A stretch of DNA of 64,000 bases, taken from Hoyosella altamirensis. GTDB lineage: Bacteria; Actinomycetota; Actinomycetes; Mycobacteriales; Mycobacteriaceae. The notes beneath the pieces were generated by a model. That model did not search any database, was not told the origin of the DNA, and was given only the letters and a program-made list of their open reading frames with translations. Both the position numbers and the translations under genes were made by a program. Below are positions 3,672 to 38,605 of this stretch, piece after piece. The DNA lies in the NCBI RefSeq assembly GCF_014191505.1, contig NZ_JACHWS010000004.1:58654-122653 (forward strand), written 5' to 3'. How positions within the stretch are numbered: the stretch's first letter is position 1; each line of letters opens with the position of its first letter.

Positions 3672-6307
3672 TTACCGTCAATGGATCTGTCGCGCCCGAC
3701 GAGCCAAAGCCGGGGCAGTGTCTGCGCAGCTTCCTGCGTGAACAGCACTGCTTCGACGTCAAGAAGGGCTGTGACGCGGGCGACTGCGGCGCCTGCACAG
3801 TGCTAGTCGACGGTGACCCCGTGCATTCCTGCATCACACCTGCTTACCGCGTAGCGGGCAAGGATGTCGTGACCGCGTCCGGTCTTGATCATCCGATCCA
3901 GCAGCAATTCGTCGATGCGATGGCTTTCCAGTGCGGATACTGCACTCCCGGCATGGTGGTGACCGGAAGCGCGCTCACAGATCAGCAGCGCAACGACCTG
4001 CCCAGTGCGCTGAAGGGAAACTTGTGCCGCTGCACTGGATATCGATCCATCAGCGCCGCCTTCGCCGGCGAGAAAACGGAATCGGTGCGCCCGCCCGCAG
4101 CGGATCGGGTGGTCCGCGGAACGGAGCCGTACACACTCGACACCCAGGTCGAGGGGCTCTTGCATGTTGCTGTTCTCGGCAGTCCCCACCCGCATGCGAG
4201 GATCACGCGGATCGACACGTCGCGTGCCCAGATGATGCCGGGCGTGGTCACGGTTCTGACGCATACCGATAGTCCCGCAACGAAGTACTCGAGTGCGCGC
4301 CACCACTTCTATACCGACGACCCGGAGGACGCGACGGTGTTCGACCGCGTCGTCCGTCACGTCGGCCAGCGGGTTGCAGCCGTTGTCGCCGAGTCGAGCA
4401 TTCAGGCTCAGCGCGCGTGCGCGGCAATCGACGTCGAGTATGAGCTTCTCCCGGCAGTTTTTGACGCTGAACGGGCAACGGCAGCGGATGCTCCTGTCCT
4501 GCACCCTGATGTCTCACAGCTCAACATTGTCGCGGAACTGCACGGAGAGACCGGTGATGTTGCCGCCGCCGTCGCTCGGGCTGAGAGCGACGGTGCTGTC
4601 GTTAGCGGCGTGTGGCGCACGGCGCGCGTGCAGCACGTCCACATGGAGACTCACGCAAGCATCGGCTGGATCGACGCCAACGATCGGCTGGTCATCCGGA
4701 CGAGCAGTCAGGTGCCGTTTCTGACTCGCGATGAGCTAGCCCGCATTTTTGGCCGTCCCAAGGAATCGATCCGTGTCTTCACCGCTCGCGTAGGCGGAGG
4801 ATTCGGTGCGAAGCAAGAAATGTTCACGGAAGATGTTGTTGCCCTTGCAGTCTTGAAGACGCGACGACCGGTGCAATATGAATACACTCGCTCTGAGGAG
4901 TTTTACCGGGCGGCGTGCCGGCATCCGATGCGGATCAGGGTGACAGCCGCAGCGGACGAGATTGGCACGCTCACAGCATTATCGGTGGATGTGCTGTCCG
5001 ACGCTGGCGCCTACGGGAATCACAGTCCCGGCGTGATGTTCCACGGCTGCAGTGAGTCCGTTGCGCAGTACCGCTGCGAAAACAAACGTGTTGACGCCCT
5101 CGCTGTCTATACGAACAACCCGCCATCGGGCGCGTTTCGCGGTTACGGACTGGGGCAGTTGATGTTCGGGATCGAGAGTGCACTCGACGACCTCGCGCGA
5201 AAACTCGGGATCGATCCGTTCGAGTTCCGCCGCCGCAACGTCGTCCGTCCCGGTGATGCTTTTGTGGATGCTGCGCTGCACGAGGATGACCTGACGTTCG
5301 GGAGCTACGGATTCGATCAGTGTCTTGACCTCGCAGAGGCGGCGCTGCGTCGCGAACCAGTGCCCGACGTGCCGCGGCATGTTCGGGTGGGCGAGGGCAT
5401 GGCTGCATCAATGATCGCGACTATTCCCCCGCGCGGGCACATCGCTCACGCAACGGTGGCTCTTGACGAAACCGGTGGCGTGACAGTGCGAGTGGGTACC
5501 GCAGAATTCGGGAACGGCACGACCACAGTGCATGCACAACTCGCTGCGCGCGTGCTGGGGATTGCTGTCGCTGATGTACGGATCCTGCAGTCAGATACTG
5601 ACCTGGTTGAGCATGACACCGGTGCATTCGGGTCAGCAGGCATCGTGGTCGCCGGAAAGGCGGTATACGACGCGGCACGCGGTCTTGCTGCGCGAATTCG
5701 TGCTGTCGCTCGGGACCTGACGAGTCCGAACGTCTCGGAAGACCTCAGGCTCGAAGGCGGCGTCGTGGTGTGTGGCGGGCGGGAGGTCCAGTTTAGCGAG
5801 ATCGCCGCGCACGCCGGTCCACTGGAGGCATCCGCTCAGCACGACGGGACGCCCAGGTCTGTCGCGTTCAACGTGCACGCATTCCGGGTTGCCGTCGACA
5901 CCCGAACCGGTGTGGTTGACATCCTTAAGTCTGTGCACAGCGCGGACGCGGGCACGGTGCTCAATCAGGAACAATGCCGAGCGCAGATCGAAGGAGGTGT
6001 AGCGCAGGCGCTGGGCTCAGCACTGTGGGAAGAAATCCCGGTGCAGGACGGTGAACCCCAGGTCAGCACACTGCGCAACTATCACATTCCGCAGTATGCC
6101 GATGTTCCGGAGACCGAGGTGTATTTCGCCGATACCTACGATGATCTGGGCCCACTTGGTGCGAAGTCGATGAGCGAATCGCCCTACAATCCCGTCGCGC
6201 CAGCGCTTGCCAATGCCATTCGTGACGCCGTGGGAGTGCGGATGCGCGAGCTGCCAATGAACGCGGTGCGCGTGTGGCGAGCGATTGCCACAGTCCAGAA
6301 ATACTGA
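3668..6307 (+). CDS. Xanthine dehydrogenase family protein, fused [2Fe-2S] ferredoxin-like small subunit plus molybdopterin-binding large subunit
   Basis: 879 aa. N-terminus carries the plant-type and second Fe-S cysteine clusters (CGACTV, CGYCTPG, CRCTGY), followed by the aldehyde-oxidase/XDH hammerhead and Moco-binding domains. Confidence 0.8.
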   Translation: MITVNGSVAPDEPKPGQCLRSFLREQHCFDVKKGCDAGDCGACTVLVDGDPVHSCITPAYRVAGKDVVTASGLDHPIQQQFVDAMAFQCGYCTPGMVVTGSALTDQQRNDLPSALKGNLCRCTGYRSISAAFAGEKTESVRPPAADRVVRGTEPYTLDTQVEGLLHVAVLGSPHPHARITRIDTSRAQMMPGVVTVLTHTDSPATKYSSARHHFYTDDPEDATVFDRVVRHVGQRVAAVVAESSIQAQRACAAIDVEYELLPAVFDAERATAADAPVLHPDVSQLNIVAELHGETGDVAAAVARAESDGAVVSGVWRTARVQHVHMETHASIGWIDANDRLVIRTSSQVPFLTRDELARIFGRPKESIRVFTARVGGGFGAKQEMFTEDVVALAVLKTRRPVQYEYTRSEEFYRAACRHPMRIRVTAAADEIGTLTALSVDVLSDAGAYGNHSPGVMFHGCSESVAQYRCENKRVDALAVYTNNPPSGAFRGYGLGQLMFGIESALDDLARKLGIDPFEFRRRNVVRPGDAFVDAALHEDDLTFGSYGFDQCLDLAEAALRREPVPDVPRHVRVGEGMAASMIATIPPRGHIAHATVALDETGGVTVRVGTAEFGNGTTTVHAQLAARVLGIAVADVRILQSDTDLVEHDTGAFGSAGIVVAGKAVYDAARGLAARIRAVARDLTSPNVSEDLRLEGGVVVCGGREVQFSEIAAHAGPLEASAQHDGTPRSVAFNVHAFRVAVDTRTGVVDILKSVHSADAGTVLNQEQCRAQIEGGVAQALGSALWEEIPVQDGEPQVSTLRNYHIPQYADVPETEVYFADTYDDLGPLGAKSMSESPYNPVAPALANAIRDAVGVRMRELPMNAVRVWRAIATVQKY

Positions 6308-28225: not shown

Positions 28226-30220
28226 CTACCAGATCTTTACCCGCTCGGATTCTTCCAGGAAGAGTCCATCAGCTTCCGTGACGTCGAATGCTTCGTAAAA
28301 GTCTTCGATGTTTCGCAAGACGCCGTTGCACCGGAATTCCGGTGGGGAATGGGGGTCAGTTGCGAGTCGGCGCTCAGCTTCCTCGTTACGTACCTTCGCG
28401 CGCCAGACCTGCGCCCAGCCGAAGAACACGCGCTGCAGTCCGCTGAGGCCATCCAGGGTCGGGGCATCGGACCCATTGGTTGCGATCTTGTACGCTCTGA
28501 GCGCGATTGCCAGCCCACCGAGGTCGCCGATGTTTTCGCCGATCGTGAAGTCGCCGTTGACCTTTTTTCCGGGCAGTGCCTTGGGTTCGAATTCGCTGTA
28601 CTGCGCGATGAGCTTCGCGGTCCGTTTTCCGAACTCCTCGCGATCCTGGTCGGTCCACCAGTTGACCAAGTTGCCGTCACCGTCGTACTTCGAGCCCTGG
28701 TCGTCGAAACCGTGCCCGATCTCGTGGCCGATCACCGCGCCGATTCCACCGTAATTCGCAGCGTCGTCAGCGTCGGGGTCGAAGAATGGCGGCTGAAGGA
28801 TCGCTGCGGGAAAGACGATTTCGTTCATCCCAGGGTTGTAGTACGCATTCACTGTCTGTGGCGTCATGAACCACTCGCCACGGTCAACGGGCCCGCCTAG
28901 CTTTTCGAATTCTCGGTCGTGTTCGGCGGCGCTACCGCGACGAACATTCCCATAAAGATCGGCACGCTCGATCACGATGCTGGAGTAGTCTTTCCACTCA
29001 TCTGGATAGCCGATCTTTGGAGTGAACTTCTCGAGCTTGCCCAGCGCGGCTTTCCGGGTCTCTGGGCTCATCCATTCGAGTGTGGAAATGCTCTGCCGGT
29101 AGGCCTCGATGAGGTTGTCGACGAGCTGCTCCATCCGGGACTTCGCGGCCGGCGGGAAATGCCGGTCGACGTACAGCTTGCCCACTGCCTCGCCGAGCAG
29201 GTGCTCAACCAGGGAAACCCCGCGCTTCCAGCGATCTCGGAGAACTTCCGCGCCGCTCAGTGTGCGGCCATGGAAGTCAAAGTTCGTTTCGACGATCTCG
29301 TCAGTCAGGTACGGGGCCCGAGTGTTGATGATCCGCCACATCATCCACGACTTCCAGGTCGCGAGCGGCACCGCGGACCAGAGTTCACCGAGAGTTCGGA
29401 GGAAGTCAGGCTGCCGCACCACGACTTCGGCGAACTGCGTGTCGGTGGCATGCAGCCCGGCGATCCAGGCCTGCCAGGGAAACGAGGGTGCGAGTTCACG
29501 CAGCTCGTCCAGAGTAAGCAGGTTATAGCTCAGCTCAGCGTCGCGGCGTTTCACCACGTCCCAGTGACCACCGGCGAGCTGTCGCTCGAGTCCGAACACG
29601 TCGGCCGCATTCTGGTCCGCGTCACACAGTGCGAACATGCGCTCGATATGCGCGATGTACTTGTCTCGCACATCGGCATGCCGCTCGTCCCGGTAATACG
29701 ATTCGTCCGGCAAGCCAATGCCGGACTGCGACAGATGCACGAGGTATCGATCGCTCTTCTTCGCGTCGGTGTAGATGTAGTAGCTGATCGGCCCGCCGGT
29801 GCCTGCCCGCTGCATCTCTCCCATAAGCCGGCCGAGTTCCTCGGGATCAGCGGCCGCGGCGACGGCGGCGAGTTCATCCTGCAATGGCGTGAGCCCCAGT
29901 GCGTTGACCCGGTCGGTGTCCATGAAGCTGGCGTAGAGGTCGCCGATCAGCTGCGCATCCGAACCAGAATCGGCGCGAGACGCGGACGCTTCTTCGATGA
30001 TGGTGCGTACGTTCTCTTCTGCTTCGTCGAAGATCTTGCGGAAGGCGCCATCGAGCGCCCGGTCGGCCGGGATCTCGTGTTCTGCCAGCCATTTCCCATT
30101 GACATGCTCGAACAGGTCATCTTGCGGCCGCGTTGCGACATCACGGTGGGCCAGATCGATACCGGATTTAGCTGTGCTACTCACCCCCTCATCTATACCT
30201 GTTGTGGTGTCAAGCCGCAC
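28226..30220 (-). CDS. M13-family zinc metallo-endopeptidase (neprilysin/PepO/Zmp1-like)
   Basis: 664 aa. HEIGH zinc-binding motif (VIGHEIGHGFDDQG), NAYY motif and a C-terminal ExxxD-type third ligand region. Confidence 0.85.
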   Translation of the reverse strand: MRLDTTTGIDEGVSSTAKSGIDLAHRDVATRPQDDLFEHVNGKWLAEHEIPADRALDGAFRKIFDEAEENVRTIIEEASASRADSGSDAQLIGDLYASFMDTDRVNALGLTPLQDELAAVAAAADPEELGRLMGEMQRAGTGGPISYYIYTDAKKSDRYLVHLSQSGIGLPDESYYRDERHADVRDKYIAHIERMFALCDADQNAADVFGLERQLAGGHWDVVKRRDAELSYNLLTLDELRELAPSFPWQAWIAGLHATDTQFAEVVVRQPDFLRTLGELWSAVPLATWKSWMMWRIINTRAPYLTDEIVETNFDFHGRTLSGAEVLRDRWKRGVSLVEHLLGEAVGKLYVDRHFPPAAKSRMEQLVDNLIEAYRQSISTLEWMSPETRKAALGKLEKFTPKIGYPDEWKDYSSIVIERADLYGNVRRGSAAEHDREFEKLGGPVDRGEWFMTPQTVNAYYNPGMNEIVFPAAILQPPFFDPDADDAANYGGIGAVIGHEIGHGFDDQGSKYDGDGNLVNWWTDQDREEFGKRTAKLIAQYSEFEPKALPGKKVNGDFTIGENIGDLGGLAIALRAYKIATNGSDAPTLDGLSGLQRVFFGWAQVWRAKVRNEEAERRLATDPHSPPEFRCNGVLRNIEDFYEAFDVTEADGLFLEESERVKIW

Positions 30221-30330
30221 CGCCCAGCTGTTTTCCGTTCCAGTTGTGAGCCTTCTGCGAGTATGGAACGATCCAAGATCGGGGGAGAAGTTGAGCGTGC
30301 GCGCATGATGCTGGAGGGGGCAAGACGACG

Positions 30331-30987
30331 GTGAGCAACCTTCTTGATGCTGCGCTGAGCTTTCCCGCGGTGCTCTTTACGTTCGCTTTCGTGGTTGTGA
30401 TCGGCTACTGGCTTCTAGTTCTGGTAGGCGGTCTGGGCCTCGACGTCTTCGAGGGGGACACGGAGGCCGCGGAAGCAGAGCCCTCTGGCTGGATGAAAGG
30501 GCTGGACCTCGGTGGGGTTCCTCTGACGGTCGCGCTCTCTCTGTTCGTCGCATTCGCCTGGCTGGTCAGCATCATCGGTTCGGTAATGCTGGGAGGCGTG
30601 AACCTGGCGGGCGCCGCTGCCGCCGCGGCGCTCATCGGTGTGCTTATTGCGGCCGTGGCGATCGGTGCGATCACCACAAAGCTTTTCATTTCCCCGCTCA
30701 AGCGGGTCTTCCGGCACGTTCCGGCACAGTCCCGTTCGGATTTCGTCGGCAAGATCTGCATCATCCGGACCAGTTCGGTGGGGCCGGACTTCGGGCAGGC
30801 CGAAGTCACATCGCCCGATGGTTCGTCCGCTCTCGTGCAGGTTCGGCAGACGGCTGAGCATGCTGCGGAAACCCCGCTCAAGGCGGGGACTTCTGCTTTG
30901 ATTTACGACTACGACGCTGACGGCGAGTTCTTCTGGGTGGCGCCGGTGGATCCCGCTCTCGACAACTTCACACCTGGACAGGCTTGA
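30331..30987 (+). CDS. NfeD-like (YqiJ/YuaF-type) membrane protein with a C-terminal OB-fold domain, the flotillin-operon partner
   Basis: N-terminal TM helices plus a C-terminal beta-rich OB-like segment (GKICIIRTSSVGPDFGQAEVTSPDGSSALVQV). Immediately upstream of flotillin, as in yqiJK and yuaF-floT. Confidence 0.7.
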   Translation: MSNLLDAALSFPAVLFTFAFVVVIGYWLLVLVGGLGLDVFEGDTEAAEAEPSGWMKGLDLGGVPLTVALSLFVAFAWLVSIIGSVMLGGVNLAGAAAAAALIGVLIAAVAIGAITTKLFISPLKRVFRHVPAQSRSDFVGKICIIRTSSVGPDFGQAEVTSPDGSSALVQVRQTAEHAAETPLKAGTSALIYDYDADGEFFWVAPVDPALDNFTPGQA

Positions 30988-31000
30988 GGAAGGGAACACC

Positions 31001-33001
31001 GTGGATACGATCGCCACCAGCTTCGGGATAGTGTTTGCCGCTATCCTGCTGACCGCTTTGGCGGTCCTGTTCATGGTTACGAGGCTGTACAAGAAGGTTC
31101 ATCAGGGCAGCGCTCTGATCGTCTCGAAGCTGAAGAAGGTGGACGTCACCTTCACCGGCACAGTTGTGCTGCCGATATTGCACAAAGCCGAGACAATGGA
31201 CATCTCGGTTAAGACGATCGACATCGAACGAACCGGTCATGACGGGTTGATTTGCCGCGACAACATCCGCGCAGACATCCGCATCACGTTCTTCGTGCGT
31301 GTCAACAAGACAATTGAGGACGTCATCAAGGTCGCGCAAGCGATCGGCACTGAGCGGGCAAGCGATCAGACGACGCTGCAAGTCTTGTTCAACGCCAAAT
31401 TCTCTGAGGCGCTCAAGACTGTCGGTAAGCACCTCGATTTCGAGGACCTTTACACCAAACGCGATGAATTCCGTGATCAGATCGTCCGCGTCATCGGAAC
31501 TGATCTCAACGGGTACAGCCTCGAGGACGCAGCGATCGACTACCTCGAGCAGACACCCATGTCACAGCTCGATGCGAAGAACATCCTCGACGCGCAGGGT
31601 ATTCGCAAGATCACCGAGCTGACAGCAATAGAGAACGTCCGCACCAACGACTACCGGCGCAACGAAGAGAAGGAAATTACCCGGCAGAACGTCGAGGCGC
31701 GTGAGGCAATCCTTGAACTCGAGCGGCAACAGGCTGATGCGGAAGCCAAACAGCGCCGCGAGGTAGATACCGCACAGGCACGCGAGACCGCGGAAACTCA
31801 GCGCGTGCAGGCAGAAGAGCGCCTCAAGTCGGAGAGTGCACGGTTGCGCACTGAAGAGCAGATTGGTGTGCAGGCCCAGAACCAGCAGCGCGAAATCGCC
31901 GTTGCAGAGAAGAACCGTGAACGTGTGATCGCGGTTGAAACGGAGCGGATCGAGAAGGATCGCCTGCTCGAGGTCATCAACCGCGAGCGTGAGACCGAAC
32001 TGCAGCGGATCGCGAAGGATCGCGAAGTGGAGACTGAGCGCCGCTCGGTGTCGGAAGCAACCCGCGAGCGCATTGCGGTCGACAAGACCGTCGCTGAGCA
32101 GGAAGAGAGTATCAATCGCTTGCGCGCGGTCGAGGCCGCTGAGCGGGACCGCCAGGCTGTGGTGATTCGGGCCGAGGGTGAGGCGCAGGAGAACCTCGTC
32201 AAAGACATCAAGGCCGCCGAGGCCGCCGAGACGGCAGCTAAGCACAAGGCCAAAGAACGGCTCACACTCGCCGAAGCAGCACAGCAGGCCGCGGAACTTG
32301 ATGCGCGTGCGAAGATCCGGCTCGCGGAGGGGCAGCAGGCCGAGGTAGCCGCATCGGGTCTCGCTGACGTACAGGTCCGGGAGCGCAACGCCGAAGCGAT
32401 CGAAAAGGTTGGTCGCGCCGAGGCGCAGGTCGAGCGTGAGAAAGCGCTTGCCGGTGCTGACGCCATTCGTGAGAAGCTCAAAGCGGAGTCTGAGGGACTC
32501 ACCGAGAAGGCTGACGCCATGGCGAAGCTCGACGACGCTACCCGGGATCACGAAGAGTACCGGCTGCGCCTCGAGATGGAGAAGGACATCCGCCTCGCGG
32601 GCATCGACGTTCACCGTCAGGTCGCCGAGCATCAGGCAGCCGTTCTCTCTGCGGGGCTCAAGGAAGCGGACATCAATATCGTCGGTGGCGAAAGTGTGTT
32701 CTTCGACCGGCTCATCGGTTCGATCGCGCTTGGTAAGGGAGTCGACGGTTTCGTGAACAACTCCGAGGTTGCGCAAACACTCGGTCAGGGCTGGTTCGAC
32801 GGCTCCCAGAGCTTCTCCGAAGACATTTCGCGTGCGCTGGCAGCTGCGGGCACGGAGGACGTCAAGAATCTCACCGTCTCGGCTCTGCTGCTGAAGTTGA
32901 TCAATGAGGGGAGCCCGCAGTCTGACAAGCTGCGTCAACTACTCGGCAACGCGCGCAAGCTCGGTCTTGCCGACACCCCGGTGACGCAAGTCAACCCATG
33001 A
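31001..33001 (+). CDS. Flotillin-family SPFH/band-7 protein (FloT/YqiK-like) with a long Ala/Glu-rich coiled-coil
   Basis: 666 aa. N-terminal TM segment, SPFH domain, then an extended EA-repeat coiled coil (AEAKQRREVDTAQARETAETQRVQAEERL...). Confidence 0.85.
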   Translation: MDTIATSFGIVFAAILLTALAVLFMVTRLYKKVHQGSALIVSKLKKVDVTFTGTVVLPILHKAETMDISVKTIDIERTGHDGLICRDNIRADIRITFFVRVNKTIEDVIKVAQAIGTERASDQTTLQVLFNAKFSEALKTVGKHLDFEDLYTKRDEFRDQIVRVIGTDLNGYSLEDAAIDYLEQTPMSQLDAKNILDAQGIRKITELTAIENVRTNDYRRNEEKEITRQNVEAREAILELERQQADAEAKQRREVDTAQARETAETQRVQAEERLKSESARLRTEEQIGVQAQNQQREIAVAEKNRERVIAVETERIEKDRLLEVINRERETELQRIAKDREVETERRSVSEATRERIAVDKTVAEQEESINRLRAVEAAERDRQAVVIRAEGEAQENLVKDIKAAEAAETAAKHKAKERLTLAEAAQQAAELDARAKIRLAEGQQAEVAASGLADVQVRERNAEAIEKVGRAEAQVEREKALAGADAIREKLKAESEGLTEKADAMAKLDDATRDHEEYRLRLEMEKDIRLAGIDVHRQVAEHQAAVLSAGLKEADINIVGGESVFFDRLIGSIALGKGVDGFVNNSEVAQTLGQGWFDGSQSFSEDISRALAAAGTEDVKNLTVSALLLKLINEGSPQSDKLRQLLGNARKLGLADTPVTQVNP

Positions 33002-36000
33002 CGGCCACTGCATCATCCACCGGCGAGGCGGACCTCGATGGCGGCACCTACGAAGTGCTCCGTAGCCGCCTCGCCCAGCATGCTGCAGAACTCGCGCGCC
33101 GAGCGGAGTCGCTCAATGCGCAGCGAGTCGAGGCGTTTGGCGGTTCTGAACTCCGCCTGATCGGGACGGAACGCATCCGAACGGAGCACAACTGCGTTCC
33201 GCGCGACATTGTCGCGCTGCCGGCGGGGAGCGACGAGGGCGGGCTGATGCTCTTCGGCTATAACGTCTTCATCGGTCTGAAGCCAGAAACCACAGTGGAG
33301 GACGTGTTCTCGCTACATCGGTTCGTCCGTGAAGGCGACACGTTCCGCTTCGAGGACGCTTCAGGTGAGATGCCAGGGCTGCTGAGTGACAGCACCTTTC
33401 AGCGTCACTTCGCCGAACTGTACCGCTACTACCGAGAGACACGCCTGCTGCAGCTACGCAGGGTCGAAGGCAAGTTGCTCGCTGTTTTTCAGACCGGGGT
33501 GCGGACTGAGGACGTCAAGGTACTGCGGTGGCGCATCAGCACCGACGGGTCAGTCACCTATATCGATAACCGTGGCGAGCGTGACCACGTTTTTCCAGCC
33601 CAGCATGATTTCGAGTGGGTTGAGACAACCCGGGACGATCATGTGCTTGGCCGCCACCCACACATTTCCATTCTCGGTGAGGTCTTCGTCGAGACCGTGC
33701 GCGGCAACCTCACTATCAAGGTCGAAGACAACACGGCAACGGGCGAAGGAATTTACGAGGAGCCAGTTGACGAGCCGCTGCAGAGCCTTGCCGACGCGGA
33801 CGTGCATTTCGCAAAAGTCGGGCCACTCATCATCTTGAAGATCCGGCCATACAATGAAAAAGACTGGCGCTATCTGGTTTTCAACACACGGACGCACGAT
33901 ATCGCCAGGCTTGACGGCATTGGGCAGTCTTGCAGACGGCTCCCGGAGGACCAGGGCCTGATCTTTCCGGGCGGTTATTATCTCGAGACCGGCCTTGCGC
34001 GAACGTTCGATACTGACACCGCTGACCTCGAGTTTGAGCGCGTCGTTCGCTCGAGTAACGGTGAGGACGTCTTGTACGCTTTCCACGCTCGGCGCGAGGG
34101 GCGGACCCTCCTGCTGCCGTACAACGTGATCCGCAAGGAAGTCGCGAATCCGGTCCCGTGCCACGGCTATTCGTTGTTCGACGACGGCACAGCCGTCGTG
34201 TTCCGTGCCGACTCAGACGAGCCAACCCGTGTGCATCCCATGCAGGTCTGGCAGACGCCGTATGAATCCGATGTGTACGCGGCGGCTCAGCCCGCGGGTT
34301 CCGGACCGCTTGAACGCATCGGCAATGCGGACCTTGTGCGCGGTATTTCGGATTGCCTGTCCGTTGCGCGCATGGTGGACGAGATGGCGCCTGCGACAGC
34401 TGTTTTCGAAGCGATGATTGCCGCATGCCGGCGCACTGCAGATAGCTACCACTGGCTGGGTGATGAGAGCGCTGGGGATCTCCTTGAGCCGCTGTCGGAC
34501 CTCCAGTCCACTGCTGAACGGGTGATAGACGAATTCGAGAAGGTCTCCGCGCTGACAGTGCAGGCATCGAAGGCTGTCGACGAATCGGAAGCCGAAATCG
34601 GATCACTGATCCGGATGAGCAGGGGCAGTGCACCGCGCTCGGCAGATGGCTGGGTATCGCTCCTCGCGGATCTGCGGAAACAACAGGGTCACATCGTCAC
34701 ATTGCGGGACCTGCGTTACGTCGATGAGAAGCGACTGGACTCACTCGATGAGCAGCTCTCTGAAGCTCTCGACGGCTCAGGCCGGCGGGCTGTGGAGTTC
34801 CTGAGCGGCGAGGACGCGTTTGAGAGTTTCCACCGAGACATTGAGCAGCTGATCGACGATGCGGACCGCATCGAAACTGTCGCGGAAGCCAAGCCTGTGA
34901 CGGAGCGGCTCTCTGAGCAAGCCGACGGATTGCAGGTAGTGACCCAGATTGTTTCCTCCCTGGATATCGGGGACGCAGTGGTTCGCACCCACATTTTGGA
35001 GCGCATCGGTGAAGTACTCGGTGGAGTGAATCGGGCGCGTGCGACCGTTGAATCGCGACGCAAGGATCTGCTGACGCGCGAAGGCCGTGCGGAATTCGCT
35101 GCCGAGTTTGGACTGCTCGGGCAAGCAATCACCGGGGCGCTCGCAGTAGCTGAAACACCCGACGCGTGTGATGAACAGCTCGGCCGCCTCCTGCTGCAGC
35201 TCGAAAATCTCGAGTCGCGTTTCAGCGAGTTCGACGACTTCCTCGACGAGCTCAGCAGTAAACGCGAAGACGTCTATGAGGCTTTCTCCTCGCGGAAACA
35301 GGCGCTTCTGGACGAGCGCTCACGCCGCGCGGACCGGCTGGTGGACTCGGCGCAGCGCATCCTCGCGTCGGTCAGCCGCCGCGTCGCTGGCATGGACACT
35401 GTCGACGAGGTCAACACGTATTTTGCGTCTGACCCGATGGTGGCGAAGCTGCGCAGCCTCGCCGACGAGTTACGCGGTATCGGCGATTCGGTCCGTGCTG
35501 AGGAAATTGATGGCCGAATCAAAGCAGCGCGCCAGGAAGCTGGCCGTGCCCTTCGTGACCGGCAGGATCTGTATGGCGACAGTGGCGAAACCATCAGGCT
35601 CGGGAAGCACCGGTTCGCGGTCAACACGCAGGCAATCGACCTGACCCTCGTTCCACACTCGGTGGACGGCGAGACTCGGATGTCCTTCGCTATTACGGGC
35701 ACGGACTACCGGTCTCTTGTGGCTGACCCCGAGTTCGCCGCCACTGCTCCCTACTGGAATCAGCTGCTCGTCTCGGAAACCAGCGACGTCTACCGCGCGG
35801 AGTTCCTTGCGACCTCGTTGCTGGCTGACGCGGAGCGCGAGGGCAAACTCGACGAACTCCATGAAGCGCTCGTGGCGGAGGGTGAACTCGCCGCCTACGT
35901 GCGCAGGGCAGCGGAATCTCGATATAACGAAGGCTACGAGCGTGGTGTACACGACCACGACGCCACCGCAATTCTCAGCGAGTTGCTGCGCCTGCACGCC

Positions 36001-37959
36001 GGTGCCGGGCTCCTGCGGTTCCCTCCCGGAGCGAGATCAGCTGCACAGCTTTTCTGGGCGTTTGATGCACGCCCCGACCGCCGCGCCGCGTGGACTACCC
36101 GCGCCGCGTCCCTGGCGCGAGCTCGCTCATCGTTCCGTCGCCCGGACGCGGTCGACGCGCTGGCGAGGGAACTGAACGGCGCGGTGGCTGCTTTCGTCGA
36201 GGAGCGCCGGATCCCCGTGGCTGATGCAGACCTCGAACTTGTTGGTGAATACCTGTTCGAAGAGCTCGCAACGGGTGCGCCACGCTTTGTGACGAGTTCT
36301 GGTGCGCGCACCCTGGTTGACCGGTTTCATCGGGCTCTCGGTGGTTCGGTCGCCAAGTCTCGCCTGGACTTCGATGAGGATCTGCGTTCGCTTGCCGATG
36401 ACGTGACTGCCCGATATCAGCTTGTGCGCGCGTGGCTGTCGGCGTATCTGGCGACTGAGGACGCTGGCGAGATGGTTGCTGATCTCGCTGAGGCTATCGC
36501 GATAGAAGTGTGTGGTAGCGCTGTCGACCGGTATGAGTCCTCCGCATCTCTCACCGGCGTGGCTGAGCCGATGCTCGGATCGCATCCGCGCATCCACGAC
36601 CGCAAGTTCGCGTTCCGGCTCGATGATCTGCTGTCACATACGCGTCACTATCGCGCGGTCCGGGTACCGGGGTTCCGCGCCTTCCAGCAGCAGCGGAACG
36701 CCCTCGTCGGGACGGAACGGAAAAAGCTGCGCCTCGACGAGTACACGCCTACGGTGATGAGCGGGTTTGTGCGCAACAGACTGCTCGACGACGCGTACCT
36801 ACCGCTGATTGGTGACAACCTCGCAAAGCAGCTGGGAGCCACTGGCGACAGTCGCCGGACCGACCAGTCAGGGCTGCTTCTGCTGATCTCCCCTCCGGGC
36901 TACGGTAAGACGACCCTGATGGAGTACGTAGCGAATCGCCTCGGCGTTGTTTTCGTCAAGGTGAACGGTCCCGCGCTAGGGCACTACGTCACCTCCGTCG
37001 ACCCGGCTGAAGCGCCCAATGCGACTGCACGTCAGGAAGTTGAGAAAATCAACTTTGCTTTGGAAATGGGCAATAACGTCTTGCTCTATCTCGACGACAT
37101 CCAGCACACTTCACCGGAACTGCTGCAGAAGTTCATCTCCCTTTGTGACGCGCAACGGCGAATGGAAGGCGTCTGGAACGGGCGGACGCGCACGTACGAC
37201 ATGCGTGGGAAACGGTTCGCGGTGTGCATGGCCGGTAACCCGTACACCGAGCAGGGCAAGCGCTTTCGGGTGCCCGACATGCTGGCGAACCGTGCGGACG
37301 TCTGGAACCTGGGTGACGTGCTCTCTGGGCGAGAGCATCTTTTCGCCCTCAGCTACATAGAGAACGCGCTGACCTCAAACTCAGTGCTCGCTCCGCTGGC
37401 CGCCCGGGACAGATCGGACATTGACCTCCTCGTACGCCTCGCAGGTGGGGATAGCACAGTCCGCCCCGATCAATTGTCGCACCCGTATTCAGCCGCGGAA
37501 CTCGATGAGGTGCTCGCGGTGATGAGCAAGATGATCCGGGTCCAAGAGATTGTGCTTGCCGTCAACCAGGCCTACATCGCGTCCGCGGCGACAGCCGACG
37601 CGAACCGGACCGAGCCGCCATTCCAGTTGCAGGGGTCGTACCGGAACATGGGCCGCCTCGCGGAACGAATCGCGCCGGTGATGAATGATGAGGAGCTTGA
37701 AGCGGTCATCGACGACCATTACCTCGGCGAGGCGCAAACTCTCACCTCCGGTGCGGAATCGAATCTGCTGAAGCTGGCAGAACTCCGCGGCCGACTCGCC
37801 CCTGAGCAGCAACAACGCTGGGAGGAAGTGAAGGCAGGCTTCCGGCGAGCCCAAGCGCTGGGCGGTGCGGAGGACGATCCCATGGCCCGTGCTGTCGGCG
37901 CAGTGGGGCTCCTCGCGGATCGCGTTGGGGGAATTGAATCCGCCCTGCGGGAACGCTGA
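32998..37959 (+). CDS. Giant (1653-aa) soluble protein with a C-terminal AAA+ ATPase module (RuvB/clamp-loader-like P-loop), function unknown
   Basis: Start ATGA overlaps the flotillin stop (translational coupling). Walker A is SPPGYGKTTL at about 36892-36920 and Walker B is LLYLDDIQH at about 37083-37109. The long N-terminal region of about 1250 aa has no recognisable motif. Confidence 0.7.
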   Translation: MTATASSTGEADLDGGTYEVLRSRLAQHAAELARRAESLNAQRVEAFGGSELRLIGTERIRTEHNCVPRDIVALPAGSDEGGLMLFGYNVFIGLKPETTVEDVFSLHRFVREGDTFRFEDASGEMPGLLSDSTFQRHFAELYRYYRETRLLQLRRVEGKLLAVFQTGVRTEDVKVLRWRISTDGSVTYIDNRGERDHVFPAQHDFEWVETTRDDHVLGRHPHISILGEVFVETVRGNLTIKVEDNTATGEGIYEEPVDEPLQSLADADVHFAKVGPLIILKIRPYNEKDWRYLVFNTRTHDIARLDGIGQSCRRLPEDQGLIFPGGYYLETGLARTFDTDTADLEFERVVRSSNGEDVLYAFHARREGRTLLLPYNVIRKEVANPVPCHGYSLFDDGTAVVFRADSDEPTRVHPMQVWQTPYESDVYAAAQPAGSGPLERIGNADLVRGISDCLSVARMVDEMAPATAVFEAMIAACRRTADSYHWLGDESAGDLLEPLSDLQSTAERVIDEFEKVSALTVQASKAVDESEAEIGSLIRMSRGSAPRSADGWVSLLADLRKQQGHIVTLRDLRYVDEKRLDSLDEQLSEALDGSGRRAVEFLSGEDAFESFHRDIEQLIDDADRIETVAEAKPVTERLSEQADGLQVVTQIVSSLDIGDAVVRTHILERIGEVLGGVNRARATVESRRKDLLTREGRAEFAAEFGLLGQAITGALAVAETPDACDEQLGRLLLQLENLESRFSEFDDFLDELSSKREDVYEAFSSRKQALLDERSRRADRLVDSAQRILASVSRRVAGMDTVDEVNTYFASDPMVAKLRSLADELRGIGDSVRAEEIDGRIKAARQEAGRALRDRQDLYGDSGETIRLGKHRFAVNTQAIDLTLVPHSVDGETRMSFAITGTDYRSLVADPEFAATAPYWNQLLVSETSDVYRAEFLATSLLADAEREGKLDELHEALVAEGELAAYVRRAAESRYNEGYERGVHDHDATAILSELLRLHAGAGLLRFPPGARSAAQLFWAFDARPDRRAAWTTRAASLARARSSFRRPDAVDALARELNGAVAAFVEERRIPVADADLELVGEYLFEELATGAPRFVTSSGARTLVDRFHRALGGSVAKSRLDFDEDLRSLADDVTARYQLVRAWLSAYLATEDAGEMVADLAEAIAIEVCGSAVDRYESSASLTGVAEPMLGSHPRIHDRKFAFRLDDLLSHTRHYRAVRVPGFRAFQQQRNALVGTERKKLRLDEYTPTVMSGFVRNRLLDDAYLPLIGDNLAKQLGATGDSRRTDQSGLLLLISPPGYGKTTLMEYVANRLGVVFVKVNGPALGHYVTSVDPAEAPNATARQEVEKINFALEMGNNVLLYLDDIQHTSPELLQKFISLCDAQRRMEGVWNGRTRTYDMRGKRFAVCMAGNPYTEQGKRFRVPDMLANRADVWNLGDVLSGREHLFALSYIENALTSNSVLAPLAARDRSDIDLLVRLAGGDSTVRPDQLSHPYSAAELDEVLAVMSKMIRVQEIVLAVNQAYIASAATADANRTEPPFQLQGSYRNMGRLAERIAPVMNDEELEAVIDDHYLGEAQTLTSGAESNLLKLAELRGRLAPEQQQRWEEVKAGFRRAQALGGAEDDPMARAVGAVGLLADRVGGIESALRER

Positions 37960-37984
37960 GTTGGCGCTGTGACACGATTGCCGG

Positions 37985-38605
37985 GTGGAAGTTCACATTG
38001 TTGAGCTGTTTCACGGGCTAGCGGCGCAGCACCCGGGCCTTGTAGCGGTAATATTCGCTGCCTTAATGATGGTGCACACCACCGCCTTCGTGGGCCCGTT
38101 CGTTCCTGGTGACATCACGGTTCTCATCGCGGGTGTCAGTATCGACCACCCAGCGCAGCTGATTTCCGTGATTCTCGCGGGCATCGCAGGATGTTTGCTG
38201 GGCGCGACATCCGGCTTCTTCCTCGGTGCTGTTTTTGGCAGCCGGATCAAGGAGTGGGCAGCTAGGCACCCACGCTGGCATCGAGCGTGGGAACGCACGG
38301 AAAGATACCTTCATGGCGGTGGCGGCGGCCCGCTCATCGCGCTGGCGATCGTGCTTCCTCTGATGCACTGTTTCGCGCCCTTCATCGCCGCTGCGCACGG
38401 AATTTCCTATCGGCGTGTGATCGCGTGGTGGGCTATCGGTGCAGCAGTGTGGATCGGGATTTTCGCGTCCTTCGGTGCGATCGCGGGTGGTTTGGTGCGC
38501 AGCGATCCAGGGGCAGCAGCCGCGGTTGCGGGCATTGTTGCGGCGGTTGTGGTCGCGGTGGTGCTCGGAATTCACACGTTGTTGCAGCGCAGGTTGGCCG
38601 ACTAG
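37985..38605 (+). CDS. DedA/SNARE-associated (TVP38) family membrane protein
   Basis: 206 aa with about 5 TM segments and the DedA-type glycine-rich re-entrant motif (GDITVLIAGVS...). Only 26 bp downstream of the giant ATPase gene. Confidence 0.6.
   Translation: MEVHIVELFHGLAAQHPGLVAVIFAALMMVHTTAFVGPFVPGDITVLIAGVSIDHPAQLISVILAGIAGCLLGATSGFFLGAVFGSRIKEWAARHPRWHRAWERTERYLHGGGGGPLIALAIVLPLMHCFAPFIAAAHGISYRRVIAWWAIGAAVWIGIFASFGAIAGGLVRSDPGAAAAVAGIVAAVVVAVVLGIHTLLQRRLAD

Follow-up and report, generated by a model that had tools for sequence, protein, structure and literature searches.

A giant AAA+ ATPase encoded with a flotillin in Hoyosella altamirensis: a conserved three-gene cassette with a possible role in membrane maintenance

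Among the closest described relatives of the locus considered here, a flotillin gene set of Hoyosella altamirensis (Mycobacteriales, Hoyosellaceae) that includes a giant ATPase, are the operons of the SPFH2 group typified by YqiJ-YqiK from Escherichia coli and YuaF-FloT from Bacillus subtilis, in which the gene directly preceding that of the flotillin encodes a small multi-pass membrane protein whose C-terminal domain is soluble (PMC2636767). These operons consist of two genes and encode no giant ATPase, and their flotillins, like the one described here, are anchored at the N-terminus and contain a long helical stretch. A larger operon has been reported from comparative genomics (section 19 of PMC11237479; mSystems 2024, preprint 2020), with a CesT/Tir-PspA pair and a YqiJ/YuaF protein of three transmembrane helices among its components, and with abbreviated forms lacking PspA that are more widely distributed. 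Genome context led that study to a functional reading similar to ours, in an account without Pfam assignment, structure model, AAA+ clade, counts or experiments. The DNA analysed here is a stretch of 64,000 nucleotides, referred to as the window (contig NZ_JACHWS010000004.1, assembly GCF_014191505.1, forward strand, 58,654-122,653). Its locus is an abbreviated form of the reported operon, sharing the three core genes, their order and the architecture of the ATPase (propeller, helical region and C-terminal AAA+) but lacking the CesT/Tir-PspA pair and adding, in Hoyosella, a gene for a DedA protein. The system is therefore not new in kind, since operons of this class had been described in silico before, but it makes a good target for experiment.

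Four successive open reading frames (ORFs) on one strand, all of them listed in a preliminary description of this DNA, make up the locus, with the following features:

30331-30987, + strand: small membrane protein of 218 residues, putatively of the YqiJ/DUF1449 type
31001-33001, + strand: flotillin-like SPFH protein of 666 residues (Pfam Band_7)
32998-37959, + strand: giant soluble ATPase of 1653 residues (DUF3686, DUF7902 and AAA+)
32998-33001, + strand: ATGA, in which the TGA stop of the flotillin gene overlaps the ATG start of the giant gene
37985-38605, + strand: DedA/VTT-family membrane protein of 206 residues (Pfam VTT_dom)

The overlap of stop and start, also pointed out in that description, was read directly in the sequence. 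The small-protein and flotillin genes are separated by 13 nucleotides that contain a Shine-Dalgarno-like stretch (GAGGAAGGG), and a gap of 25 nucleotides (37960-37984), essentially the 26 base pairs reported earlier, separates the giant gene from that of DedA. The giant ORF is not a product of chance, because it matches Pfam DUF3686 with an E-value of 4.5e-222 and its product, for which more than 6900 homologues are known, is 100% identical to a protein of H. altamirensis.

Three of these genes, not four, form the conserved unit, namely those of the small protein, the flotillin and the giant. A scan of actinomycetes, with one genome per species, found a relative of the giant in at least 578 species, and neighbourhoods were counted in 80 of these loci; a second set of 80 metagenome loci, ranging in G+C content from 0.33 to 0.71, was retrieved with a profile of 14 distant members, which also retrieved Gammaproteobacteria with the same architecture. 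The flotillin gene lies directly upstream of the giant in 79 of the 80 actinomycete loci, the sole exception beginning at a contig end, and in 72 of the 80 metagenome loci, where, of the eight loci lacking it, five are truncated at the end of a contig and three are genuine stand-alone copies. The YqiJ-like small gene is found upstream in 77 and 61 loci, respectively. The adjacency of flotillin and giant, which had been proposed as the telling feature of the locus, is therefore nearly constant among relatives. Identities of the flotillin and of the giant to their window copies also co-vary (r = 0.69), and loci from Streptomyces and Streptomonospora hold the same three genes between unrelated flanks; since flanking genes differ between genera, the cassette is regarded as a self-contained unit. 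The 4-nucleotide overlap is seen in 52 of 81 actinomycete loci as opposed to 1 of 75 from other phyla, where gaps of 50-150 nucleotides are usual, and tight coupling is therefore a habit of the actinomycete lineage, with adjacency the conserved property.

The giant aligns with the whole of the DUF3686 profile (PF12458; positions 1-448 of 448, residues 31-485) and with DUF7902 (PF25472; E 1.7e-30, residues 606-689, nucleotides 34813-35064), and bears a C-terminal AAA module, for which the Pfam models AAA, AAA_5 and AAA_22 give weak matches above their cut-offs at residues 1289-1420. These features place it in the family named "DNA repair ATPase" (the Pfam description of DUF3686 reads "ATPase involved in DNA repair"), and the same domain architecture was already annotated for all 120 of its best homologues. 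The family forms 1419 clusters at 50% identity, with full-length members down to about 27% identity, and alignment columns are on average 74% identical for 13 actinomycete giants and 43% identical for 14 distant sequences. No transmembrane helix was detected by hydropathy and no signal peptide is present, in keeping with the soluble protein first described. Two AlphaFold2 models, built from an alignment of 36 sequences spanning Actinomycetota and Gammaproteobacteria, are both confident, the mean predicted local distance difference test (pLDDT) score being 86.4 in the one that covers residues 1-700 and 86.8 in the one that covers residues 690-1653. The features of the protein are as follows:

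33040-33138, + strand: N-terminal helix, residues 15-47 (AlphaFold2)
33154-34254, + strand: divergent beta-propeller of about 28 beta strands, the core of DUF3686, residues 53-419 (AlphaFold2 and Foldseek)
34306-35568, + strand: long helical region of three-helix-bundle or spectrin-repeat-like segments that holds DUF7902, residues 437-857
35590-36522, + strand: small beta domain of five strands (residues 865-907), then an all-helical domain (residues 933-1175) (AlphaFold2)
36865-37317, + strand: AAA+ alpha/beta core, residues about 1290-1440
36898-36915, + strand: Walker A motif GYGKTT, residues 1301-1306 (PPGYGKTT, residues 1299-1306)
37081-37098, + strand: Walker B motif LLYLDD, residues 1362-1367, with DD in place of DE
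37159-37200, + strand: beta-hairpin ahead of sensor 1, between core helix 3 and strand 4, residues 1388-1401
37237-37239, + strand: sensor-1 position, N1414
37291-37293, + strand: candidate arginine finger R1432, at the end of helix 4
37333-37956, + strand: helical lid and C-terminal helical extension, residues 1446-1653 (AlphaFold2)
37642-37644, + strand: candidate sensor-2 R1549, in the conserved motif QGSYR (Q1545-R1549)

Comparison of the N-terminal model with the PDB by Foldseek gave 160 matches at E <= 1e-3, and the top 50 are nearly all beta-propellers, among them the LRRK2 WD40 domain, Elp1, Ski8, sialidases, prolyl oligopeptidase, PON1 and NUP43. Their probabilities are close to 1.0 yet their TM-scores are low, and the propeller is therefore described as divergent. 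The two domains at residues 865-1175 have no Pfam match and no recognisable relatives. The N-terminal region of about 1250 residues had been thought to hold no known domain; it holds two, DUF3686 and DUF7902, both of which are domains of unknown function. It resembles neither an SMC protein nor a dynamin by Pfam or by Foldseek of the AlphaFold model, the two examples first named of a family that would have made the locus ordinary. In two representative proteins of 1798 and 1449 residues (P0205 and P0256), a single ORF begins with flotillin sequence and continues into that of the giant ATPase. These could be genuine fusions of the two genes, or equally artefacts of frameshift, assembly or truncated contigs, and were not used as evidence.

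The consensus for AAA+ proteins comprises a Walker A motif of the form GxxGxGK[ST] and a Walker B motif of the form hhhhDE. The C-terminal module of the giant has both Walker motifs together with an alpha/beta core, a helical lid, and candidates for sensor 1, the arginine finger and sensor 2. Residues K1304, D1366/D1367, N1414 and R1432 and the QGSYR motif are invariant among actinomycetes, with equivalents that are invariant across distant phyla, and because of this invariance the ATPase appears to be functional, although the DD of its Walker B is unusual. The GYGKTT motif lies exactly where it was first placed, and LLYLDD is present about 9 nucleotides upstream of its first placement (about 37090-37105). 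The earlier assignment of the P-loop to a RuvB/clamp-loader type was imprecise. Structure comparison places the AAA+ fold nearest to the MoxR-class proteins CbbQ and NorQ, with midasin and dynein next and the classical unfoldases ClpA (13.1), ClpX (11.4) and FtsH (10.5) scoring lower. The RuvB_N match, by comparison, covers 44 residues around the P-loop and falls below the Pfam cut-off (21.1 versus 27 bits), the NCBIfam RuvB and CDC48 matches are far under theirs, and sequence searches of the PDB, made with the whole giant and with a profile of its AAA region, returned similarity confined to the P-loop region. The window enzyme differs from CbbQ and NorQ, members of the group (AAA_5) to which midasin and dynein are related, in the fusion of its ATPase to about 1250 N-terminal residues, in its DD Walker B and in the makeup of its cassette. 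MoxR-class ATPases usually act with a partner bearing a VWA/MIDAS domain. Neither the giant nor any of the cassette genes examined revealed such a domain, and the protein is therefore considered MoxR-like in fold without being classed as a MoxR system.

The two membrane proteins of the cassette are more modest in size. Hydropathy predicts three transmembrane helices in the small protein (residues 14-32, 67-85 and 96-114), which also has a conserved soluble C-terminal domain that, by analogy with the literature, may adopt an OB/NfeD-like fold. The protein itself matches no Pfam family, including NfeD and YqiJ_N (PF21001), even at E <= 5, and a profile search of the PDB with it found nothing. 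It aligns over its whole length, however, with gammaproteobacterial orthologues, two of which score above the YqiJ_N cut-off (23.6 and 24.2 versus 23 bits), and its Hymenobacter orthologue is annotated as DUF1449. The assignment of the small protein as a YqiJ/YuaF-type, NfeD-like partner of flotillins (PMC2636767) thus proceeds by transitive homology, since it is the orthologues that match and not the window protein. It was first designated NfeD; the YqiJ/DUF1449 type is the better description, the Pfam family NfeD giving no match. The flotillin matches Band_7 (PF01145; 28.2 bits, cut-off 23.6) over residues 32-175 and has a single N-terminal transmembrane helix predicted by hydropathy at residues 8-26, followed by the sequence RLYKK, a helical region rich in Glu, Ala and Arg at residues 216-520 or thereabouts, and a C-terminal region. 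It is longer than the flotillins of the two-gene operons and matches NCBIfam FloT weakly (24.6 versus 700 bits). The window protein gave no match to Flot (PF15975), a model whose cut-off of 27 is not reached by the orthologue in locus L085 either (17.4), and a search of the PDB with the flotillin found nothing.

Beyond the three core genes, PspA occurs in 26 of the 80 metagenome loci, with a gene for DUF2170 (CesT/Tir-like) in 25; a zinc-ribbon protein (10 loci) and a rhomboid protease (8 loci) are less frequent. In roughly one in three loci outside the actinomycetes, the cassette comes after PspA and a CesT/Tir-like chaperone. Representative gene orders are:

Bacterioplanes sanyensis: DUF2170, PspA, small protein, flotillin, giant, rhomboid
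Metagenome contig L084: small protein, Band_7, giant, DUF2170, PspA
Saccharobesus and a Deinococcus plasmid: the three-gene cassette alone
Hymenobacter plasmid: Tir chaperone, PspA, DUF1449, flotillin, giant
Pseudomonas fluorescens SBW25 plasmid pQBR103: YjfI, PspA, rhomboid, DUF2491, DUF350, DUF1190, glutathionylspermidine-synthase-like, small protein, SPFH, giant

PspA and a DUF2170/CesT-Tir-like gene therefore stand in one string with the cassette in Bacterioplanes, Hymenobacter and pQBR103 as well. The full five-gene form of the reported operon (PMC11237479), with homologues of the window giant, was recovered in Hymenobacter, Bacterioplanes and the 26 metagenome loci, and it is because the Hymenobacter and Bacterioplanes loci tie the two together that the described operon class is taken to cover the protein family of the window. 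The preliminary description had called the machine uncharacterised, which holds insofar as no experimental study was found, although the operon type itself had already been described.

Taken together, these features suggest that the cassette encodes a flotillin-anchored, ATP-driven remodeller, acting on flotillin assemblies, PspA assemblies or both, that serves membrane maintenance or the response to envelope stress, a reading to which we assign a probability of about 0.5; confidence in any specific substrate of the giant is lower than in this general role. The YqiJ-type protein and the single-pass flotillin would together form an SPFH scaffold at the cytoplasmic surface of the membrane. The giant would be recruited to it, with the beta-propeller at its N-terminus and the long helical stalk probably making the contact. 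As a ring oligomer, probably, the MoxR-class AAA+ module would then use ATP to build up, take apart or otherwise remodel the flotillin assembly, much as MoxR ATPases serve their client complexes, and might act on PspA/IM30 polymers as well where these are co-encoded. The cytoplasmic placement of scaffold and ATPase is predicted from the positive charges of RLYKK that follow the flotillin transmembrane helix and from the lack of a transmembrane helix or signal peptide in the giant. For the cassette proteins we infer, too, their physical interaction, oligomeric state, substrate and physiological trigger.

The giant is almost never found without a flotillin, whereas flotillin-YqiJ pairs without the giant are common (PMC2636767, PMC11237479), which suggests the scaffold as the target of the ATPase or as the platform through which it works; the dependence looks one-sided. 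A MoxR-class AAA+ module points to the remodelling of protein complexes rather than to processive unfolding or DNA translocation. The frequent presence of PspA/IM30, a membrane-repair polymer of the ESCRT-III superfamily, points to membrane maintenance under stress; the recurrent linkage lends support to the role in membrane remodelling or envelope stress that was first proposed for the locus. Two known systems offer analogies of function only, namely FtsH-HflK/C, in which an AAA+ machine is paired with an SPFH cage, and Vps4-ESCRT-III, in which an AAA+ machine recycles a membrane-remodelling polymer.

Several observations weigh against a remodeller of this kind. The Walker B motif ends in DD where DE is the usual form, and catalytic competence is an assumption. 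The VWA/MIDAS partner expected of a MoxR-class enzyme is missing from the giant and the cassette genes examined. No homologue of PspA or DUF2170 is present in the 64-kb window or in 82 actinomycete loci, and the link to PspA is therefore indirect for Hoyosella. The literature searched yielded no experimental work on any family member, the comparative-genomic account (PMC11237479) being the sole one; it yielded no mention of DUF3686, and a paper on SPFH proteins of Pseudomonas aeruginosa does not mention such an ATPase.

A more specific and decidedly tentative proposal is that the giant is a dedicated ATP-driven motor for the assembly or disassembly of flotillin cages, in effect a "Vps4 for SPFH scaffolds" that docks by means of its propeller and stalk. 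If this were so, the dynamics of flotillin microdomains, and in many bacteria of PspA polymers too, would be under direct energy-dependent control, and we know of no ATPase of such kind for any SPFH scaffold. Most bacterial flotillin mutants have weak phenotypes; a very large, extremely conserved ATPase family that nearly always accompanies a flotillin offers a concrete handle on the construction and recycling of SPFH/flotillin assemblies and on their coupling to membrane repair.

The alternative that survives best, although it appears unlikely, is quality control of membrane proteins, in which the flotillin cage would corral damaged or misassembled membrane proteins and the giant would extract them or pass them to proteases, a role comparable, in soluble form, to that of FtsH enclosed by HflK/C or to that of Cdc48 alongside Derlin and erlin in endoplasmic-reticulum-associated degradation. 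FtsH-HflK/C provides a precedent for the pairing of SPFH and AAA+ proteins (PMC13220708). Rhomboid protease genes adjoin the cassette in the eight metagenome loci mentioned above, in Bacterioplanes and in pQBR103, and a peptidase gene is also found ahead of one giant that stands alone. Stand-alone copies without flotillin are rare (metagenome loci L092, at 4494-6295, L110 and L137), and that of L092 is preceded by genes for AIM24 and an M48 (HtpX-like) peptidase, both of which are membrane-proteostasis genes. Proteases nevertheless occur in a minority of loci, never within the three-gene core and not at all in the actinomycete cassette, and the M13 peptidase gene of the window lies on the other strand and adjoins the cassette in only 4 of the 80 actinomycete loci, all of the Hoyosella/Lolliginicoccus group. 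The structures nearest to the module, those of MoxR proteins, midasin and dynein, are likewise not those of the unfoldases ClpA, ClpX and FtsH.

Less probable still is an anti-phage or conflict system, in which the flotillin and YqiJ-like protein would act as membrane sensor or effector and the giant NTPase as switch. Conflict systems commonly include giant NTPases with a fused propeller, the cassette has variable flanking genes and copies on large plasmids (among them pQBR103 and plasmids of Streptomyces, Deinococcus and Hymenobacter), and its distribution in Mycobacteriales looks patchy, being confined among the 80 loci to the Hoyosella/Lolliginicoccus group and Nocardia uniformis. The defence machine entertained in the preliminary description is nonetheless poorly matched by the evidence: PADLOC returned no system and only a 30-residue P-loop match to IetA (E 0.0019), searches of 2.9 million viral contigs and of 50,697 phage records found no copy, and Pfam revealed no nuclease, protease, TIR or other effector domain in the three proteins. 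A mean column identity of 74% across actinomycete orders is very high for a protein of 1650 residues and unlike that of arms-race genes, and the module is linked to PspA, not to defence genes.

A DNA repair ATPase, as the name in NCBI, UniRef and Pfam has it, is very improbable and already weakly refuted, the RuvB_N match of 44 residues and a LexA-family regulator divergent upstream in Hymenobacter being what can be cited for it; since nothing found supports DNA repair, the name is probably a propagated guess. The family is sometimes labelled "MoxR-like ATPase" by JGI, and the prevailing mislabel in public databases hides it from membrane biologists.

The LexA-family protein (helix-turn-helix and S24 peptidase) is encoded on the plasmid of Hymenobacter sp. 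DG25B (L168, 2577-3362), divergently and upstream of the Tir-PspA-DUF1449-flotillin-ATPase operon. It matches a "cHTH+Protease" gene in the Dokdonia example of the earlier account (PMC11237479), and it is possible that it is a dedicated regulator of the operon. In pQBR103 (L166, record positions 84437-97641) the ten genes listed above form a continuous string, in which a YjfIJKLMC-like PspA/polyamine operon is joined directly to the cassette; as a well-studied megaplasmid, pQBR103 offers a ready experimental system. Other tractable hosts that carry the giant are Proteus mirabilis, Vibrio campbellii, Amycolatopsis, Streptomyces and Micromonospora. The zinc-ribbon gene, encoding about 170 residues, is inserted between flotillin and giant in four loci (L103, 4096-4611; L159, 5658-6170; L163, 7413-7910; L164, 7419-7910), and in Bacterioplanes (L083) a homologue lies downstream, past the rhomboid gene.

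The gene that follows the giant in Hoyosella encodes a protein of the DedA family, with a VTT_dom (PF09335) match of 53 bits against a cut-off of 33.9 and an NCBIfam DedA match (E 3.7e-16, 59.6 bits) under the model cut-off of 236. It was considered as a fourth component and was rejected: a DedA homologue lies 3' of the giant in only 2 of the 80 actinomycete loci (Hoyosella sp. and Lolliginicoccus suaedae) and in none of the 80 metagenome loci. DedA is thus a lineage-specific neighbour outside the conserved module, possibly co-transcribed with the cassette in Hoyosella. No terminator-like site was seen in the 25-nucleotide gap ahead of it in a promoter and terminator scan, which was set aside because shuffled sequence yielded more sites.

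Elsewhere in the 64-kb window, scans for tRNA genes and for Rfam families at the gathering threshold returned none. On the other flank of the cassette, an ORF of 471 residues (28919-30334, + strand) with no Pfam match runs antisense to the M13 peptidase gene (28226-30220, - strand), which is itself well supported (Peptidase_M13_N, E 6e-128), and the ORF is almost certainly a shadow ORF of the kind seen in high-GC sequence.

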